Origin: Reyranella sp.
Lineage (GTDB): Bacteria > Pseudomonadota > Alphaproteobacteria > Reyranellales > Reyranellaceae
NCBI GenBank assembly: GCA_052386855.1
Contig: JBQTJT010000108.1
Location: 2,340 to 66,339, forward strand
Reading direction: 5' to 3'
DNA length: 64,000 nucleotides
The position numbers and the translations under genes were made by a program. The notes beneath the pieces are model-generated. The model was not told the origin of the DNA. It searched no databases and was given only the letters and a program-made list of their open reading frames with translations. Positions 4,719 through 25,162 of the stretch are shown piece by piece; position 1 is the first letter of the stretch; each line of letters starts with the position of its first letter.

Positions 4719-5726
4719 GTGCCCCCGTCCATCGATTCCCTCGATCTGCCGCCCTTTAAGCCGCGGTTTCCCTGGTGGGGAGCTGATTTGCAGACGATCT
4801 ACAATCGGTGGACCGCGCCCGAGGCGGATTTGTCGCCGCACTGCAGCGAGCGCCTCTGCTTTCCCATGGCCGATCGCACCGGCGACATTCTGTTGGGCAT
4901 GCTCGACCACCCCGCGGAACCGGTCGCGGACCGGCCGCTGGTGGTTCTGCTTCATGGCCTGACTGGCAGCGAGGACAGCCCCTACATTCTGAGTTCGGCC
5001 CGCCACCTGCTGGACTGCGGCTATCGCGTGCTGCGCCTCAACGTGCGCGGTGCAGGACCCTCGCGGCCCTATTGCAGCGAGCACTATCACGTCGGTCGCA
5101 CCGCGGATTTCCGCCGCGTGCTCTGGCAAATTCCCGAGGAGCTGACGGACAACGGCATCGTCGCGGTCGGCTATTCGCTGGGCGGCGCCATGCTGCTGAA
5201 ATACCTCGGTGAGGAGGGCTCTTTCGCGCCGCTGCGTGGCGCTGCCACGATCTGCGCGCCGATCGACCTCGCACGCACCGGTCAACACATGCAGAAGCCG
5301 CGCAACTGGCTCTATCACACCTATATCCTGAACGGCATGAAGGCCGAGGCTTTGGCGGACGGCGCGCGGATCTCGGCGGAGGAGCGCGCCGTCGTGCGTG
5401 CCGCGCGCAGCGTCTGGGAGCACGACGAACACTTCATCGCACCACGCTACGGTTTCCGCGGCGCCGAGGACTACTACGACCTCTGCACGCCATCGCAGTT
5501 CATGCCCGAGATCCGCGTGCCGACCATGGTGGTGGCAGCCTGCGACGACCCCTGGATTCCGGTCGAGCACTATCGCGAGTTCAAATGGGACGATAATCCG
5601 TGGCTTCTGCCCGTGATGCCGCCGACCGGTGGCCATGTCGGGTTCCACGGCGACGCCAGCCGCAAGCCCTGGTGCGATCTTGCGGTAGAGAAATTCGTCG
5701 AGCGGATTGCTACTATGGAGGCGTGA
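4719..5726 (+). CDS. alpha/beta hydrolase, YheT/ABHD1-3-like (copy 1)
   Basis: GTG start. Contains PPFKPRFPWWGADLQT, LLHGLTGSEDSPYI and GYSLGGAMLLKYLGEEG (GxSxG). Confidence 0.8.
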   Translation: MPPSIDSLDLPPFKPRFPWWGADLQTIYNRWTAPEADLSPHCSERLCFPMADRTGDILLGMLDHPAEPVADRPLVVLLHGLTGSEDSPYILSSARHLLDCGYRVLRLNVRGAGPSRPYCSEHYHVGRTADFRRVLWQIPEELTDNGIVAVGYSLGGAMLLKYLGEEGSFAPLRGAATICAPIDLARTGQHMQKPRNWLYHTYILNGMKAEALADGARISAEERAVVRAARSVWEHDEHFIAPRYGFRGAEDYYDLCTPSQFMPEIRVPTMVVAACDDPWIPVEHYREFKWDDNPWLLPVMPPTGGHVGFHGDASRKPWCDLAVEKFVERIATMEA

Positions 5727-17725: not shown

Positions 17726-18961
17726 TTACGACCCGGACGAGAAGGCCTGGATGCCGGTCATGGCGCGGCCGAGGATCAGCGCATGGACGTCGTGCGTGCC
17801 CTCATAGGTGTTCACCGCCTCGAGATTCATGACGTGGCGGATCACGTGATACTCGTCCGACACGCCGTTGCCGCCGTGCATGTCGCGGGCGACGCGGGCG
17901 ATGTCGAGCGCCTTGCCGCAGTTGTTGCGCTTGATCAGCGAGATCATCTCCGGCTGGGCGTGGCCCGCATCCTTCAGGCGACCGACGCGCACGCAGGCCT
18001 GGAGGCCCAGCGCAATCTCGGTCTGCATGTCGGCCAGCTTCTTCTGGATGAGCTGGTTGGCGGCCAGCGGCCGGCCGAACTGCTTGCGGTCGAGCGTGTA
18101 GTTGCGCGCCTGCTTCCAGCAGAACTCGGCGGCGCCCATGGCGCCCCAGGCGATGCCGTAGCGGGCGTTGTTGAGGCAACCGAACGGGCCGCCGAGGCCG
18201 GCGACGTTGGGCAGCATGTTCTCCACCGGGACCATGACCTCGTCCATCATGATGCCGCCGGTCACCGAGGCGCGCAGGCTGAACTTGCCTTCGATCTTGG
18301 GGGTCTCGAGGCCTTTCATGCCGCGCTCGAGGATGAAGCCGCGGATCGCGCCGCCGTCGAGCTTGGCCCAGATCACCAGCACGTCGGCGATCGGCGAATT
18401 GGTGATCCACATCTTGGAGCCGGAGACCTTGTAGCCGCCGGGCACCGTCACGGCGCGGGTCTTCATGCCGCCGGGATCGGAGCCGTGGTCGGGCTCGGTG
18501 AGGCCGAAGCAGCCGACCCATTCGCCTGTCGCGAGCTTGGGCAGGTACTTCATGCGCTGCTCTTCGGTACCGTAGGCATAGATCGGATGCATGACGAGGG
18601 AGGACTGCACGCTCATGGCCGAGCGGTAGCCGGAATCGACGCGCTCGACCTCGCGGGCGACCAGGCCGTAGGAGGTGTAGTTGGCGCCGGCGCAGCCGTA
18701 CTTCTCGGGCAGGGTCGAGCCCAGGAGGCCGAGCGCGCCGAACTCGTTCATGATCTCGCGGTGGAACTTCTCGTGCCGATTGGCCTCCAGCACGCGCGAC
18801 ATGAGCTTTTCCTGGCAGTAGTCGCGGGCAACGTCGCGGATCGCGATCTCGTCCTCGGTGAGTTGGTCGTCGAGGAAGAACGGGTCCTCCCAATCGAACG
18901 GCTTGGCGTCTGAACTGATGCCCTTGGCGGCGCTCTTGATCGGTGTTGCGGCGGTGGCCAT
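17726..18961 (-). CDS. gcdH: glutaryl-CoA dehydrogenase
   Basis: Start is ATG 18961 after GGAGAA ([10 protein letters not shown]...). Contains [34 protein letters not shown] and [13 protein letters not shown]. Confidence 0.9.
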
Positions 18962-19093
18962 GATTTCTCCTCGAAGTGTCCGTGGCGTCTTATCAGGGAC
19001 CGTCCCGCAGGCCAACCTTTGCAGCGGGGAGGTCCGGCGCTACAAACTCGCCTCGTCGGAACGCGCATTTGTCCGTAAAGGCGAGGATCATCG

Positions 19094-20494: not shown

Positions 20495-21334
20495 TTGATG
20501 CTGATCGCCGACGCCCAGATCCACATCTGGGCCGCCAATACGCCGGAGCGGCCATGGCCGGCCCGCGCCGAGCCGCACCGTTCGCCGCTCGGTAAGGACG
20601 AGCTGCTGGCCGAGATGGACAAGGCCGGTGTCGACCGCGCGATCCTGGTGCCGCCGTCATGGGAGGGCGACCGCAACGATCTCGCCCTTGAGGCAGCCGC
20701 GGCGCATCCGGGCCGCCTTGCCATCATGGGCCGCTTCGACCCCGATGCGCCCGGCGCCCGAGATCTGGTCGCGGGCTGGAAGAAGCAGAAGGGCATGCTC
20801 GGCATGCGCTTCACCTTCCACACCGACATTCTGCGCCAGCCGCTGCTCGACGGTCGCTTCGACTGGGTATGGGGCGAGATGGAGAAGGCCGGCATCCCGG
20901 CGATGGTGCTGTTTCATCACGAATACATGCATCTCGCCGACAAGGTCGCGGAGCGCTATCCCGGCGTGCGACTGGTGCTCGATCATCTTGGCCTGAAGAG
21001 CGGCAAGGACGTCACGGAAGCCACCAACTTCGCCACCCTCGACAAGGTGCTGGCGCTGGCCAAGCGGCCGAACGTGGCCGCAAAAGTCTCGGCCATGCCA
21101 TGCTACGCCGACGACAAGACCTATCCCTTCAAGTCGGTTCATCCCCACATCCGTCGCGTCTTCGACGCCTTCGGACCCAAGCGCACCTTCTGGGGGACGG
21201 ATCTGTCGCGGCTGCCCGGCAGCTATCGCCAGGGCGTCACGATGTTCACCGAGGAAATGCCCTGGCTGAAGGGGACCGATCTCGAGGGTGTGATGGGCCG
21301 CGGCGTCTGCGACTGGCTCGGCTGGAAGGGCTAA
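20495..21334 (+). CDS. amidohydrolase family protein (amidohydrolase-2 / TIM-barrel metal hydrolase)
   Basis: Contains IADAQIHIW, then LVLDHLG and WGTDLSR. Confidence 0.8.
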   Translation: MMLIADAQIHIWAANTPERPWPARAEPHRSPLGKDELLAEMDKAGVDRAILVPPSWEGDRNDLALEAAAAHPGRLAIMGRFDPDAPGARDLVAGWKKQKGMLGMRFTFHTDILRQPLLDGRFDWVWGEMEKAGIPAMVLFHHEYMHLADKVAERYPGVRLVLDHLGLKSGKDVTEATNFATLDKVLALAKRPNVAAKVSAMPCYADDKTYPFKSVHPHIRRVFDAFGPKRTFWGTDLSRLPGSYRQGVTMFTEEMPWLKGTDLEGVMGRGVCDWLGWKG

Positions 21335-21338
21335 ACCC

Positions 21339-22310
21339 CTAAAGCGCGCGTGTCACCGTCTGCGAGCCACCGCCCCAGATCGGCAGGTAGCTCATCTTGT
21401 ATCCCGCACCGCCGGTTACGATGGGGTGGATGGCAGCCGGTGCGCTTGCCACGTCCTGGCCTTCGTCGAACAGATACTGCTGCACGCGCGCCAGATCCCA
21501 ACCGTCGTGGCGGACGATCTTCTCGGCCATTTCGAGCGGCAGCAGGAACACCTGTTCGCCGCGCTGGTTCTTGCGGCCCATGCCGGACATGACGATGGCG
21601 GCCCGCATCGCTGTCGCAATGGGGGAGAGGATGGCCTCGGGCGTGGCGCCTTCGCCGTCGCCCGGCAGCACCTCGGCGGTGCCCGAAATGCCCATCACCG
21701 TGATGGCGCTGGCGTCGCCGCCGAGGCCGCGCCGCGCAGTCAGGGTCGGGAAGGGACCATCGTTCCGTTCGGCAAAGCAGAAAGTGTACTTGCCGGGTTG
21801 CCCCATGGTCGCCATGTCGCCCACGTCGGAGCGCGCGCCGCCGATGTTGCGGATCACGAGCTGCAGCGCGCGGCCGATGCTGGCGTTGGCGCGATTGCCG
21901 GGACCGAGGCAGTTGGTGCCGGCATTGATGCCGAGCGATCGCGCCAGCGGGCCGTGCACGCAGAGCGCCACGCAGGCCGTGCCTGTCGTCGTGGCGATGC
22001 CGAGGATGTTGAAGTCGGGCTCCAGGATCGCCTCGGATGCGGCCAGCACGACCGGCAGCTCGTCGGGCAGCGCGCCCGCGATCACGCACTGGTAGGCCAC
22101 GGCCTCGGGCGTGAGCTCGCCGAACATCGGCGGCAGCATGCCGCGCGACTCGGCGCGATTGACGACGCCGGCGACCATGGCATCGAGCCGCCGTTGCGTC
22201 GGCGGTACAAGCGGCAGGCCGTCGCTGAGCTCTGCGTCAGTTAGGATCTGCTGGGCAACTTCCCAGCCCGCCGACTCCTCGACGACGGGCCAGCCGCACC
22301 ACTCGGTCAT
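21339..22310 (-). CDS. conserved protein of unknown function, paralog B of the selenoprotein operon
   Basis: 323 aa. Shares DGLPLVPPT, EPDFNILG, NAGTNCLGPG, ANASIGRAL and PGKYTFCF blocks with the upstream gene. Its start ATG 22310 overlaps the upstream stop (ATGA). Confidence 0.7.
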   Translation of the reverse strand: MTEWCGWPVVEESAGWEVAQQILTDAELSDGLPLVPPTQRRLDAMVAGVVNRAESRGMLPPMFGELTPEAVAYQCVIAGALPDELPVVLAASEAILEPDFNILGIATTTGTACVALCVHGPLARSLGINAGTNCLGPGNRANASIGRALQLVIRNIGGARSDVGDMATMGQPGKYTFCFAERNDGPFPTLTARRGLGGDASAITVMGISGTAEVLPGDGEGATPEAILSPIATAMRAAIVMSGMGRKNQRGEQVFLLPLEMAEKIVRHDGWDLARVQQYLFDEGQDVASAPAAIHPIVTGGAGYKMSYLPIWGGGSQTVTRAL

Positions 22311-23341
22311 TGGATGCGCGTGCAGGCGACCATGGTGCCGCCGAACGACGGGATGAACGCCGAGTGCTTGCCCGGGCCGCCCGCCACGGTGATGTGTATG
22401 TCGTTCGAGGAACGGCCAATGCGCAGCCAGTCACCGTCGCGCTTGTGGCCGGTGGCCTCGTAGGTCTCCATGTTCTCCTTGGAGACGCGGCTGATATGGA
22501 CACGCGAGCGGGTCCACAGCTCCTCGCGGATGGTCTCGATGGTGAAGCCGTCGCGCTTCAAGGTCGCGGCGTGCTCCGGGCCGATGATGATGAACATCGG
22601 GCCTTTGCCGTAGATCGTGTTGGCGCCAGGATTGGCCATGCCGCCGGCGAAGGTCGTCAGCAGGCCATCACCCGTGGTCGAGCCGTGGTCGTTGAGGTTG
22701 TGCGGACCTTCACCGGACATCACCGTCACCACATTGTCGGTCGGCTTGAAGCCGCGCTGCACATGGTAGGGCGCCCAAGGGTTCTCTTCCTCGTTTTCGC
22801 CAAAACAGAAAGTGAACTTGGCGGGATTGCCCTGGGTCGAGCGATCCATCTCGCCGGGCTTGGCGCCGGCGATGTTGAGCAGCATCAGGCCGAGCGCGCG
22901 GCCGATCGTGGCGTTGGCCTGCCAGCCCTGGCCGAAGCAGTTGGAGCCGCAGTTGACGTTGAGCTCCTTGCGGATCGGTCCGCTGATCATGACCATCGGC
23001 GCGCAGGAATGCGTCGTGGCGAGCGTGCCGTGCAGGTTGAAGTCGGGTTCCAGCACGCTGCGCAGCGCGGCCGTTACCACCGGGAAGTATTCCGGCTTGC
23101 AGCCGGCCATGACGGCGTTGGCGGCCATCGCCTGGATGGTTGGCACGATCTGGCGCGGCGGCACGGGCGAGTAGGGCCGATTGTCGCCGCGCACCGTGTC
23201 GACGAACTTCGCCACCTTCGCCTCGGTCGGCACGAAGAGCGGCATGCCGTCGCTCCAGCCCTGTTGGGTGGCGAACTCGTTGAACGTCTCGACGTCCATG
23301 TCGCCGATGTCGATGACTTCCTGTTCGGCGATATCCGTCAT
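22307..23341 (-). CDS. conserved protein of unknown function, paralog A of the selenoprotein operon
   Basis: 344 aa. Blocks are DGMPLFVPT, EPDFNLHG, NCGSNCFGQG, ANATIGRAL and PAKFTFCF. Its start ATG 23341 overlaps the selenoprotein stop (ATGA). Confidence 0.7.
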   Translation of the reverse strand: MTDIAEQEVIDIGDMDVETFNEFATQQGWSDGMPLFVPTEAKVAKFVDTVRGDNRPYSPVPPRQIVPTIQAMAANAVMAGCKPEYFPVVTAALRSVLEPDFNLHGTLATTHSCAPMVMISGPIRKELNVNCGSNCFGQGWQANATIGRALGLMLLNIAGAKPGEMDRSTQGNPAKFTFCFGENEEENPWAPYHVQRGFKPTDNVVTVMSGEGPHNLNDHGSTTGDGLLTTFAGGMANPGANTIYGKGPMFIIIGPEHAATLKRDGFTIETIREELWTRSRVHISRVSKENMETYEATGHKRDGDWLRIGRSSNDIHITVAGGPGKHSAFIPSFGGTMVACTRIQ

Positions 23342-23856
23342 TGCTTCGTCGCCTCGAGAAGGCCCTTGGTCGCGGTTTCGATGCGCTCGCGCAGCTCCTC
23401 GGCGTTGAGACCGCCCACCGGGTGCTTCACGACGATAAGCTTGGGCTCGATCTTGCGGGCTTTCGCCTGGGCAAGCACGAGCGGCTTGAAGGTCTCAGTG
23501 GCGATCACGTAGGCCGTGATGCCGAGTTTCTCGAGTTCGATGCTGTCGTGGAAACTCCACGATGAGCAGGACCCTCAATCCCCTAGTGCAAGGAGCGCCG
23601 CGCGATACTTGGTGGCGACAGCCTGGATCAGTTCCTTGGGGGCGGCCTGGCTGGCGCTGTTCTTGGCGTGGAACTCGATGTTGTCGACGTTGCGGAAGGC
23701 GCTGAGCTTGGCCTTCATGCCCTCGAGCAGCTCGCGCGCATTCGGCTTGGAGTTCGACATGAGCGCGATCGCGTCGGTTGCCCAGTTGATCGGCTTCAGC
23801 GCGATCGTGGGGCCCGCGGCGGCCGCGAGACCAAAAGTCGGATTGATGATACGCAT
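23338..23856 (-). CDS. UGSC-motif selenoprotein, 172 aa, with in-frame UGA (23577..23575) read as selenocysteine
   Basis: The track ORF stops at TGA after ...KYRAALLALGD. The same frame continues GSCSSWSFHDSIELEKLGITAYVIATETFKPLVLAQAKARKIEPKLIVVKHPVGGLNAEELRERIETATKGLLEATKQ to TGA 23340..23338, which overlaps the next gene's ATG. The 237-nt tail has no start codon of its own. A hairpin follows the UGA. RBS GAGGAG lies before ATG 23856. Confidence 0.75.
23541..23568 (-). promoter_or_regulatory. candidate bacterial SECIS hairpin
   Basis: The mRNA reads UGA GGGUCC UGCU-CA-UCGUGGA-GUU-UCCACGA-C-AGCA. It has a perfect 7-bp upper stem with a G-U-containing apical loop starting 12 nt after the UGA, plus a 4-bp lower stem. 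Confidence 0.5.
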
Positions 23857-23868
23857 GATCGCTCCTCT

Positions 23869-24744
23869 TCAACTCGCTTTGGCCAGCGCCGCCACGACGG
23901 CCTTGGCGGCACGCTGGCCGTCGGCGATGGCGTCCGAGAGATAGGGACGTCCACCGGCCCGTACGTCGCCCGCGGCAAGGACCGAGGGCGCCGAGGTGCG
24001 GCCATCTTCATCGACCACGATATGCCCTGAGGCGTCGCGTGCAAGCGTTTCCGGCAGGAATTCCGCAGCGGGAGACTGGCCGACATAGACGAACACTGCG
24101 CTGGCCGGAACCGTGTTCCGCGCTGCTCCGGATTCAACCACGATGGACTGCAGGCCGTCGTTGCCCTCCAGGCCGACGATGCGGCCGTCGAGGAAGGTGA
24201 CGCCCTCGGGCTTCTCGTCCGGCGGCGATCCGATCACGGTGACCGATCCGGCAAGCGCGATCAGCTCCTGGGCTTCGAGGGCGGCCCAGCCTTCCGCGCC
24301 GGCGACCACGACCGGCAAGCCCGTGTAGAGAGGACCGTCGCAGGCAGCGCAGTGAGAGATGCCGCGGCCTTCGTATTCGTCTTCGTTGGCGAGACCAAGC
24401 CGGCCCTTGTTGAGGCCGGTCGCGACCACGACGGCGCGGGCGGTGTGGCGCTCGCCGTCGGCTGTCTCGATCGTCCACGGACCATTGCCGGAGAGCTTGG
24501 TCACTTCGCCGAAGCCGATTTCCACGCCAGCGACCACGGCGTCGTCGGTCAGGAGCGAGGCCATCTGTGTGCCAGTGAAGATCTCGTCGAAGTCGTGCAG
24601 TTCGCCAAGGTTGATCAGCACGCCGCCTGGGGCGAGCTTGTCGAGGCACAGGCACTTCAGGCCGGTGCGGGCGGCTTCGGTGGCGGCGGTGAGGCCGGCG
24701 GGGCCGGCACCGATGACGATGACGTCGTGGGAGGGCGTGTCCAT
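23869..24744 (-). CDS. thioredoxin-reductase-like FAD-dependent disulfide oxidoreductase lacking canonical NADPH-binding motifs
   Basis: Start is ATG 24744 (MDTPSHDVIVIGAGPAGLTAA). The redox motif is CAACDG (TrxB has CATCDG). GDV(R) lies near the C-terminus. The second dinucleotide motif reads VVVAGAEGWA where TrxB has VIGGGNTA, and HRRxxxR is absent. Confidence 0.85.
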   Translation of the reverse strand: MDTPSHDVIVIGAGPAGLTAATEAARTGLKCLCLDKLAPGGVLINLGELHDFDEIFTGTQMASLLTDDAVVAGVEIGFGEVTKLSGNGPWTIETADGERHTARAVVVATGLNKGRLGLANEDEYEGRGISHCAACDGPLYTGLPVVVAGAEGWAALEAQELIALAGSVTVIGSPPDEKPEGVTFLDGRIVGLEGNDGLQSIVVESGAARNTVPASAVFVYVGQSPAAEFLPETLARDASGHIVVDEDGRTSAPSVLAAGDVRAGGRPYLSDAIADGQRAAKAVVAALAKAS

Positions 24745-24800
24745 GGCGGCCACTAATCCGGATTCGCGATGCGAAGTGCAAGCGACTTGACTCGGCAGGC

Positions 24801-24829
24801 TTCCATACCTAGTTATGCTAGGTATGGAA
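24801..24829. promoter_or_regulatory. perfect 12-bp inverted repeat, candidate PadR operator
   Basis: TTCCATACCTAG-ttatg-CTAGGTATGGAA lies in the divergent intergenic region between the TrxR-like gene and padR. It abuts the padR RBS and start. Confidence 0.5.
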
Positions 24830-24835
24830 GCCGAA

Positions 24836-25162
24836 ATGCTCAAAGGGCACCTCGATGCCATCGTCCTCGCCGCGCTGGAAGTCGGGCCGGCACACGGCTA
24901 CGCCATTATAGAAACCATTAAACGCTGCAGCACTGACACTTTCGACCTGCCGGAGGGCACCATCTATCCGGCGCTTCATCGCCTGGAAGAGGCTGGCCTG
25001 CTCTCGAGCGCGTGGACGGTCCCGCCTGGCGGCCGTCGCCGCCGCATGTATTCGCTGACCAAGGCGGGCTCGGCAGCCCTTGCGGATCGCCGCAAGGCGT
25101 GGGGCCGGTTCTCGCAAGCCATCAATGCGCTGCTTGGGGGAGGCCGCGCATGGCCGGCATGA
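24836..25162 (+). CDS. PadR family transcriptional regulator
   Basis: Contains MLKGHLDAIVLAALEVGPAHGYAIIETI and EGTIYPALHRLEEAGLLSS. I prefer ATG 24836, which lies 5 nt after GGAAG. In-frame alternatives are 24815 and 24824. Confidence 0.85.
   Translation: MLKGHLDAIVLAALEVGPAHGYAIIETIKRCSTDTFDLPEGTIYPALHRLEEAGLLSSAWTVPPGGRRRRMYSLTKAGSAALADRRKAWGRFSQAINALLGGGRAWPA

Follow-up and report, generated by a model that had tools for sequence, protein, structure and literature searches.

A conserved gene module links the UGSC-family selenoprotein to an unnamed protein family and a thioredoxin reductase-like flavoprotein

The 64,000-nucleotide (nt) stretch of DNA analyzed here as a whole (the window) comes from contig JBQTJT010000108.1 of Reyranella sp. 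(assembly GCA_052386855.1, positions 2,340 to 66,339 of the forward strand), and homologs of its genes with 92-95% identity are from Reyranella (Alphaproteobacteria). On its minus strand, at 24744-21339, lies a quartet of genes encoding a thioredoxin reductase (TrxR)-like flavoprotein, a selenoprotein of the UGSC family, and two proteins named here paralog A and paralog B. The arrangement of these genes is conserved in other genomes far beyond chance; its conserved core is the pair of UGSC and A, which B and the TrxR-like gene accompany often but not always. On balance, we consider it probable that the four genes represent a single module in which a thiol/selenol redox relay is dedicated to an enzyme of an uncharacterised family.

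Organization of the four genes

The TrxR-like gene (24744..23869, minus strand, 291 amino acids (aa)) terminates with a TGA stop at 23871-23869 and is separated by a 12-nt spacer (AGAGGAGCGATC, containing GAGGAG) from the UGSC gene (23856..23338, minus strand, 172 aa including selenocysteine (Sec) at residue 94, with the motif ...LALGD-U-GSCSSW...). The ATG of paralog A (23341..22307, minus strand, 344 aa) overlaps the stop of the UGSC gene (ATGA), and the ATG of paralog B (22310..21339, minus strand, 323 aa) overlaps the stop of paralog A in the same manner. All coordinates of this four-gene layout, including the 12-nt spacing and the two ATGA overlaps described in an earlier sequence-only reading, were reproduced here, and the paralogy of A and B claimed there was substantiated by 29% identity (E 5e-42). 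The layout would be compatible with stoichiometric co-expression of the four genes, which had also been proposed.

Conserved linkage across genomes

Gene order was examined by tblastn with six window proteins at 84 loci of other genomes, 80 of which came from one scan of species-representative genomes and four from contig look-ups. UGSC is found directly upstream of A at 83 of the 84 loci, and B downstream of A at 76 (two further loci end at contig ends), with the order A-A'-B in six loci. A TrxR-type gene is adjacent at 63-65 loci (about three quarters), mostly upstream and in five cases downstream. All-against-all clustering of 4,541 flanking open reading frames (ORFs) revealed, apart from UGSC, A/B and the TrxR-like gene, no gene family whose conservation extends beyond the Reyranella group. 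Co-occurrence of these genes in other genomes is borne out by the same gene order at the 84 loci. Exact ATGA overlaps were found only in the closest relative (L005); intergenic gaps are 0-20 nt in most Reyranella-type loci and about 10 to 300 nt in more distant lineages. Thus, tight linkage is conserved but the ATGA overlap itself is not.

In approximately ten Acetobacteraceae-type genomes (L044-L048, L054-L056, L069 and L077), selA-selB lies directly upstream of TrxR-like-UGSC-A-B, at a distance of ~1-4 kb. UGSC may be the principal selenoprotein of these organisms.

The UGSC selenoprotein and its Sec codon

The UGSC protein matches PF24696 over residues 3-168 with 124.5 bits (cutoff 25) and, when U in the query was replaced by C, scores 117.4 bits against NF041046 ('UGSC family (seleno)protein'), just short of the equivalog cutoff of 125. 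Both family models extend across the two halves that flank the TGA codon. It is therefore a member of an already named family and not a new selenoprotein. The TGA in question (23577-23575, minus strand) is the only in-frame TGA of the gene, and the homologous codon is TGA in all 83 A-adjacent UGSC genes from other genomes. More distant homologs have cysteine (Cys) at this position, either as GD-C-GSC (haloarchaea, Arthrobacter and Roseovarius) or as AM-C-GSC (Variovorax). The alternation of Sec and Cys forms, for which the sequence-only reading had proposed a check, holds in part: Cys forms do exist, only in distant lineages, and all 83 close relatives have Sec.

A putative selenocysteine insertion sequence (SECIS)-like hairpin (UCGUGGA-GUU-UCCACGA, 23546..23562, minus strand) begins 12 nt past the UGA and places a G/U-containing apical loop 18 nt past it. 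The 17 nt of this hairpin are unchanged across 42 distinct sequences, apart from one C/U difference that retains G-C or G-U pairing. Synonymous sites within it (TCG, AGT and TTC) are frozen while flanking codons vary, and the AGT serine codon is kept although it is rare in this GC-rich genome. The minimum free energy structure has a value of -15.1 kcal/mol, only modestly better than shuffled sequences (z = -1.9), and no double compensatory changes were observed among the 42 sequences. Because of the modest z value and the lack of such changes, the SECIS-like case is built on the frozen synonymous sites and the correct spacing rather than on covariation. Judged from the sequences, namely the TGA in 83 of 83 genes, the distant Cys homologs and the hairpin with its frozen synonymous sites, the Sec reading of the window TGA is taken to be real. 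No gene for tRNA-Sec, selA or selB was found within the 64-kb window.

Gene callers break the UGSC reading frame at the UGA, which gives fragments of ~94 aa and ~67 aa (for example P0402 and P0404, and genes 5385-5666 and 5706-5909 in L002-L004). In the source annotations, such fragments have received names such as 'ribosomal protein L16 Arg81 hydroxylase' or 'UspA family protein', both of which are misannotations. A simple annotation rule can be given: an ORF of 93-94 aa that ends with ...GD followed by TGA and lies upstream of an A/B-family gene is the N-terminal half of a selenoprotein.

The 'UGSC-containing protein' entered the literature in 2007 as a selenoprotein without known function (PMC1976440). 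In 2008, it was given a 'likely Trx-like fold', and a 'UGSC/Unknown_1' fusion was mentioned (PMC2398784); Unknown_1 may be the A family. A review of 2026 still lists UGSC among the uncharacterised selenoproteins (PMC13188914), and no function or partners were given in the literature found that mentions UGSC.

The fold was examined with the AlphaFold2 (AF2) model of a 73%-identical homolog, which has a mean predicted local distance difference test (pLDDT) score of 87.8. The model is a flavodoxin-like (βα)5 structure with five consecutive β-α units, in which Sec is predicted to lie between β3 and α3, at the N-terminus of helix 3. In PDB, its fold is matched best by lumazine synthase and by flavodoxin-like domains (E 2.5e-4, template modeling (TM) score 0.45-0.5), and no thioredoxin-fold protein is among these top matches. 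As far as this model, which is not a solved structure, can be relied on, the thioredoxin fold proposed in 2008 (mixed β-sheet, βαβ-α-ββα, with CxxC at the N-terminus of helix 1) is rejected.

Paralogs A and B belong to a family without recognizable relatives

More than 7,300 homologs of paralog A and more than 5,000 homologs of paralog B, the latter all unnamed, were found, and an exhaustive profile search grouped the A/B family into 5,814 clusters at 50% identity. RefSeq calls A a 'hypothetical protein' everywhere while naming UGSC (annotated plasmids). Neither A nor B has a match in Pfam (E up to 10) or NCBIfam, and no PDB sequence was matched by phmmer or by a 37-sequence profile. The AF2 model of paralog A alone is confident (mean pLDDT 83.5, predicted TM score (pTM) 0.85), but Foldseek gave no significant match in PDB (best E 0.067, TM 0.25). 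Class I fumarate hydratase, cyanuric acid hydrolase and CyuA appeared as weak Foldseek hits with TM ≤0.25 and were judged to be noise. According to these searches and the model, the fold of the A/B family apparently has no represented relatives, and the paralogs, which the sequence-only reading could not recognize, do not map to any characterised family.

Across 162 A/B domains, the invariant residues are D31, G32, P34, P38, G80, T109, T110, G121, N143, G147, R148, D166, K175, C179 and E182, with C179 present in 142 of the 162. The family-wide core of paralog A comprises D31, T109, T110, N143, R148, D166, K175, C179 and E182, and A-type proteins have in addition a His cluster (H111, H214, D218, H219 and H326). 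Paralog B retains the core residues and lacks both the A-type His cluster and a segment of ~27 residues.

Two family members occur in other surroundings. At L082 (7980-9041), an A homolog follows genes for an aldehyde dehydrogenase and a TauD-family dioxygenase, with no UGSC nearby. At L085 (5001-7154), a 717-aa protein with two A/B domains lies downstream of an SBP_bac_5 solute-binding protein, and no UGSC is present in the sequence, which reaches ~0.5 kb past the gene. The A/B family may therefore not be wholly dependent on UGSC.

The TrxR-like flavoprotein

The TrxR-like protein retains the FAD fingerprint GAGPAG (VIGAGPAG) and a redox-active C-A-A-C center (SHCAACDG), matches PF07992 with 86 bits, and has bacterial TrxRs as its best PDB matches (such as 5mh4, E 4.7e-40). 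Its TIGR01292 (TrxB) score is 176.8 bits, about half of the equivalog cutoff of 343.45. In the alignment with 5mh4, AGAEGW stands where the NADPH fingerprint GGGDSA would be expected, and an 11-residue deletion takes out the HRRxxxR motif for the 2'-phosphate. A thioredoxin-disulfide reductase TrxB is therefore rejected as its identity, as it fails the TIGR01292 score and both NADPH motifs.

An alignment of the partners from 63 loci shows that those of the upstream type share these changes (AGAxGW with a conserved Trp, and HRRxxxR deleted), whereas those of the downstream type keep canonical NADPH motifs; the redox CxxC is kept in all 63. The upstream-type partners are a TrxR subgroup that, as judged by sequence, lacks the NADPH motifs, and they represent a new element. 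The NADPH-independent TrxR-like enzymes known so far act as reductases with other donors. Clustering of the flanking ORFs revealed no ferredoxin or flavodoxin gene conserved beside the module.

Gene fusions and Cys-type modules in distant lineages

The census of fusions covered the best 150 of the 5,814 A/B clusters. UGSC/A fusions were detected in 50 of them: 18 have a complete N-terminal UGSC domain, 28 start with the post-UGA part of UGSC and are Sec-containing fusions cut by gene callers, and four finish with the pre-UGA part, which corresponds to the order A-UGSC. Two A/B domains were found in five proteins. UGSC(Cys)-A fusions are exemplified by P0247, P0250 and P0254, and an A-UGSC fusion cut at the UGA by P0275. 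P0252 is a fusion of A with a TrxR whose reductase part has intact GGGDSA and HRR motifs.

Arrangements in distant lineages were read from annotated plasmids. Arthrobacter has trxB-trxA-A-UGSC(Cys), Variovorax trxB…SDR-A-UGSC(Cys), and Roseovarius a LysR gene with A-UGSC(Cys)-trxB, where genes for a CaiB-type CoA-transferase and a TRAP transporter adjoin. Among haloarchaea, Halalkalicoccus has paralog-UGSC(Cys)-A, again with a CoA-transferase and a TRAP transporter as neighbors, and Natrinema has UGSC(Cys)-A-DUF6282-NAD(P) oxidoreductase-MFS, in which the NAD(P)-binding oxidoreductase is not of the TrxR type. The reductase-plus-carrier logic suggested for the operon in the sequence-only reading fits the pairwise fusions among UGSC, A and TrxR as well as the Arthrobacter operon.

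In Arthrobacter sp. ERGS1:01, the Cys-type UGSC (L090:8015-8830) is extended at its C-terminus by a region whose match to the NifU-like PF01106 is borderline (27.2 bits, cutoff 27). Fusions in which the UGSC-like domain has MGTS at the motif are present in Sporomusa termitida pSPTER (L089:6323-8047) and Vibrio europaeus pVEu (L092:6374-8059), and both adjoin aconitase X and DUF126 genes. No TIGR01292-like TrxR-type gene is adjacent to the fusion at L089 or L092; a different FAD-dependent oxidoreductase (PF12831) lies directly downstream of the fusion in Sporomusa.

Genomic context and regulation

The neighbors of the module are of a catabolic type and include LysR/IclR/PadR regulators, TRAP/TTT/MFS/ABC transporters, and genes related to CoA esters, such as CaiB-type CoA-transferases (in three lineages), acyl-CoA dehydrogenases and a MaoC-like hydratase. 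CaiB/BaiF CoA-transferases adjoin the module in Roseovarius, Halalkalicoccus and six loci from metagenome-assembled genomes (L088 and L093 are among the recurrences), an acyl-CoA dehydrogenase is close to it in several loci, including the window (17726-19015), and a MaoC-like hotdog gene overlaps the start of the TrxR-like gene in two Hyphomicrobiaceae loci (L070:5620-6480 and L074:5522-6388). These themes (CoA-transferase, MaoC-like, acyl-CoA dehydrogenase, Amidohydro_2/DUF6282, ICL/PEP-mutase and aconitase X) are recurrent but not universal, and are leads only.

The sequence-only reading had noted an amidohydrolase-2 gene that converges on the end of the operon. Such a gene is indeed present (20495..21334, plus strand; PF04909, 90.8 bits), with 4 nt between its stop and that of paralog B (window 21334-21339). 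This distance leaves no space for terminators, and a search for a terminator-like site at the junction found none. Amidohydro_2 genes occur near the module in ~22 Reyranella-type loci at variable distance, and unrelated genes of this type are co-directional with, and overlap, the module in Desertibaculum and Natrinema (DUF6282). The window gene might be an accessory one, its association with the module being weak.

A PadR-family regulator gene (24815..25162, plus strand; PF03551, 76.8 bits; TIGR03433, 99.7 bits) is divergent from the TrxR-like gene, an arrangement shared by ~20 Reyranella-type loci, and from its position PadR is probably the local regulator of the operon. A perfect inverted repeat with arms of 15 nt (GGCTTCCATACCTAG / CTAGGTATGGAAGCC, 5-nt spacer, 24798..24832) lies in the 70 bp between the two divergent genes, extends over the padR start and is a candidate PadR operator for both divergent promoters.

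On the IncP plasmid p2-T1 of Acidovorax sp. T1 (L095, 6404-7936), an N-terminal fragment of UGSC and an unannotated A homolog lie downstream of IS1071-/IS91-family transposase genes and have a gene of the ICL/PEP-mutase family as a neighbor. Mobile catabolic DNA may carry the module along.

Proposed relay and alternative explanations

In the relay that we favor, the FAD and the C-A-A-C disulfide of the TrxR-like protein would reduce the Sec94-Cys97 selenenylsulfide of UGSC. Reduced UGSC would then dock on paralog A, which would probably be paired with B in a heterodimer, and serve there as reductant or attacking nucleophile. The substrate would be a small organic compound, probably a carboxylate or a CoA-ester-related catabolite, bound in a conserved polar pocket of A that may be formed by D31, T109-T110, N143, R148, D166, K175, C179 and E182 together with the A-type His cluster. 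The relay is proposed on the basis of the conserved synteny, the three kinds of fusions, and the trxB/trxA genes in Cys-type operons. The organic acid or CoA-ester-related substrate is suggested by the catabolic-type neighbor genes and is a lead rather than a result. A more ambitious version has a fair chance, though one below even: the A/B family would found both a new fold and a new enzyme class, a reductase or reductive lyase assisted by Sec or Cys and widespread among aerobic bacteria and haloarchaea. It would be the long-sought catalytic partner of UGSC, one of the most abundant selenoproteins of aquatic environments, would act on a small molecule of environmental importance, for example an organosulfur or organic-acid/CoA-ester catabolite, and would be driven in Alphaproteobacteria by a new NADPH-independent TrxR-like protein.

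Several observations weigh against the favored relay. A TrxR-type gene is missing within 8 kb at about a quarter of the loci, no conserved substrate-specific neighbor emerged from the clustering of the 4,541 ORFs, and, with its NADPH motifs lost, NADPH-driven reduction is not assured for the window TrxR-like protein. Moreover, the two-Cys (CxxC) motif has been lost in seven of 20 fused UGSC-like domains (such as those with MGTS in Vibrio and Sporomusa), and most of these CxxC-less fusions retain C179, and some the His cluster, in the attached A domain. Accordingly, the redox dyad is not required in every case for the chemistry of A. No residue of A, C179 and the His cluster included, was found to co-vary with the redox motif of the fused UGSC domains; a simple dithiol relay from UGSC to C179 is thus unsupported, as C179 does not track the motif.

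The CxxC-less fusions, the lack of covariation, and the question of the electron donor for the Trp-containing (W-type) TrxR-like proteins leave room for other explanations. The one with the largest share of the remaining probability, which we still regard as unlikely, is that A (with B) is a non-redox enzyme, for example a hydratase/dehydratase, isomerase or lyase for an organic acid. UGSC would then be a structural or lid subunit, with its Sec/Cys-x-x-Cys serving as a redox switch or protective site that is kept reduced by the TrxR-like protein outside the catalytic cycle. This would explain why UGSC-like domains free of Cys and Sec are still fused to intact A domains and adjoin aconitase X with DUF126 and an enolase-like gene, why neither the His cluster nor C179 follows the redox motif, and why UGSC is missing near the family member at L082 and from the ~0.5 kb past that at L085. 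It is difficult to reconcile with the fixation of Sec in 83 of 83 close relatives, given that Sec is costly and normally catalytic, and with the dedicated TrxR genes, TrxA and A-TrxR fusions, which suggest a supply of electrons at the level of turnover and not occasional repair. Electrons might instead flow in the oxidative direction: A/B would oxidise a substrate or a thiol/selenol compound, electrons would travel by way of the Se-S pair of UGSC to the FAD in the TrxR-like protein, and the final acceptor would be O2, a quinone or some other compound. The loss of NADPH motifs with retention of CxxC and FAD motifs in the upstream-type partners of aerobic Alphaproteobacteria is in line with this idea. 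We nevertheless consider it improbable, as canonical trxB (PGAP equivalog), trxA and an A-TrxR fusion with GGGDSA/HRR in other lineages point to NADPH-driven reduction, and the known NADPH-independent TrxR-like enzymes remain reductases.

A role in the handling of selenium (its trafficking or detoxification, or the recycling of Sec) instead of in catabolism is much less likely again. It could account for selA-selB directly upstream of the module in the ~10 Acetobacteraceae-type genomes, but this adjacency is explained more simply if UGSC is the main selenoprotein there. In addition, the neighbors of the module are transporters, regulators and CoA-ester enzymes, and Cys-type modules exist in Actinobacteria and haloarchaea, the latter of which are not known to use Sec. 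Finally, the TGA could be a true stop and the 'selenoprotein' two unrelated small ORFs, as would be suggested by the 93-aa ORF and downstream fragment reported by gene callers and by the absence of tRNA-Sec and sel genes from the 64-kb window. This explanation is effectively refuted: conservation of the frame extends past the TGA in 83 loci, Cys homologs of full length and fusions align through it, a SECIS-like hairpin is present, and the Pfam and NCBIfam models cover both halves. Compared with these explanations, the reductive relay from the TrxR-like protein through UGSC to A/B is the one that we prefer.

Significance and comparison with known systems

Since 2007-2008, UGSC has been listed as one of the prokaryotic selenoprotein families that are most abundant in metagenomes from oceans and fresh water. 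The new elements reported here are the A/B family as its near-obligate partner, the fold of that family, which apparently has no known representative, the adjacency of selAB, and the flavodoxin-like model of UGSC; in addition, there is a substantial chance that the catalytic A/B family is a new enzyme class. By its near-constant adjacency or fusion to one large, unnamed and Pfam-absent family, UGSC is turned from an orphan into a testable system with defined partners, and in most cases a dedicated TrxR-type flavoprotein goes with the UGSC-A pair. Cys-type versions in cultivable and genetically tractable organisms (Arthrobacter, Roseovarius, Variovorax and haloarchaea) sidestep the difficulty of expressing selenoproteins.

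With respect to the UGSC family described by Zhang and Gladyshev in 2007/2008, the window protein is a full member that shares the U-G-S-C motif, the in-frame TGA and the SECIS-like hairpin. Sec forms far outnumber Cys forms here, as they did in the Global Ocean Sampling (GOS) data, in which UGSC was among the most abundant selenoprotein families with 255 Sec and 21 Cys sequences (PMC2398784). The difference from the 2008 account is the fold, which in our model is flavodoxin-like and not Trx-like. As for the TrxR-like protein, it has the same fold family, FAD motif and CxxC center as TrxB, but its presumed substrate would be UGSC and not thioredoxin. It also resembles TrxR-like enzymes of the FFTR/DDOR type, being likewise ~290 aa long with the CxxC kept and the NADPH motifs gone; structures of this type (PDB 6gna, 6gnc and 6gnd) match it as well, scoring below the canonical TrxRs.

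The module as a whole can be compared with the glycine/sarcosine/betaine reductase and D-proline reductase (Grd/Prd) systems (GrdA/B/E, PrdA/B and TrxB-TrxA), to which the likeness is a functional analogy only. A and B, like UGSC, have no match to PF07355 (GRDB) or the Gly_reductase family in Pfam at E up to 10, and UGSC matches nothing besides its own family at that threshold; no PDB sequence or profile match was obtained for these proteins either. In the absence of such sub-threshold Pfam matches, a link of UGSC to GrdB/PrdB is rejected. The hosts also differ, as they are aerobic heterotrophs and haloarchaea and not Stickland fermenters, and no GrdC/D-like genes are present. What is shared is the logic of the operon, in which a TrxR-type flavoprotein is combined with a small selenoprotein and paralogous substrate subunits. 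The Sec/Cys pair of the small selenoprotein is likewise two residues apart, and genes of the thioredoxin system belong to the operon in both cases, here as a TrxR-type gene at about three quarters of the loci and as trxB-trxA in Arthrobacter, whose operon thereby adds a thioredoxin.

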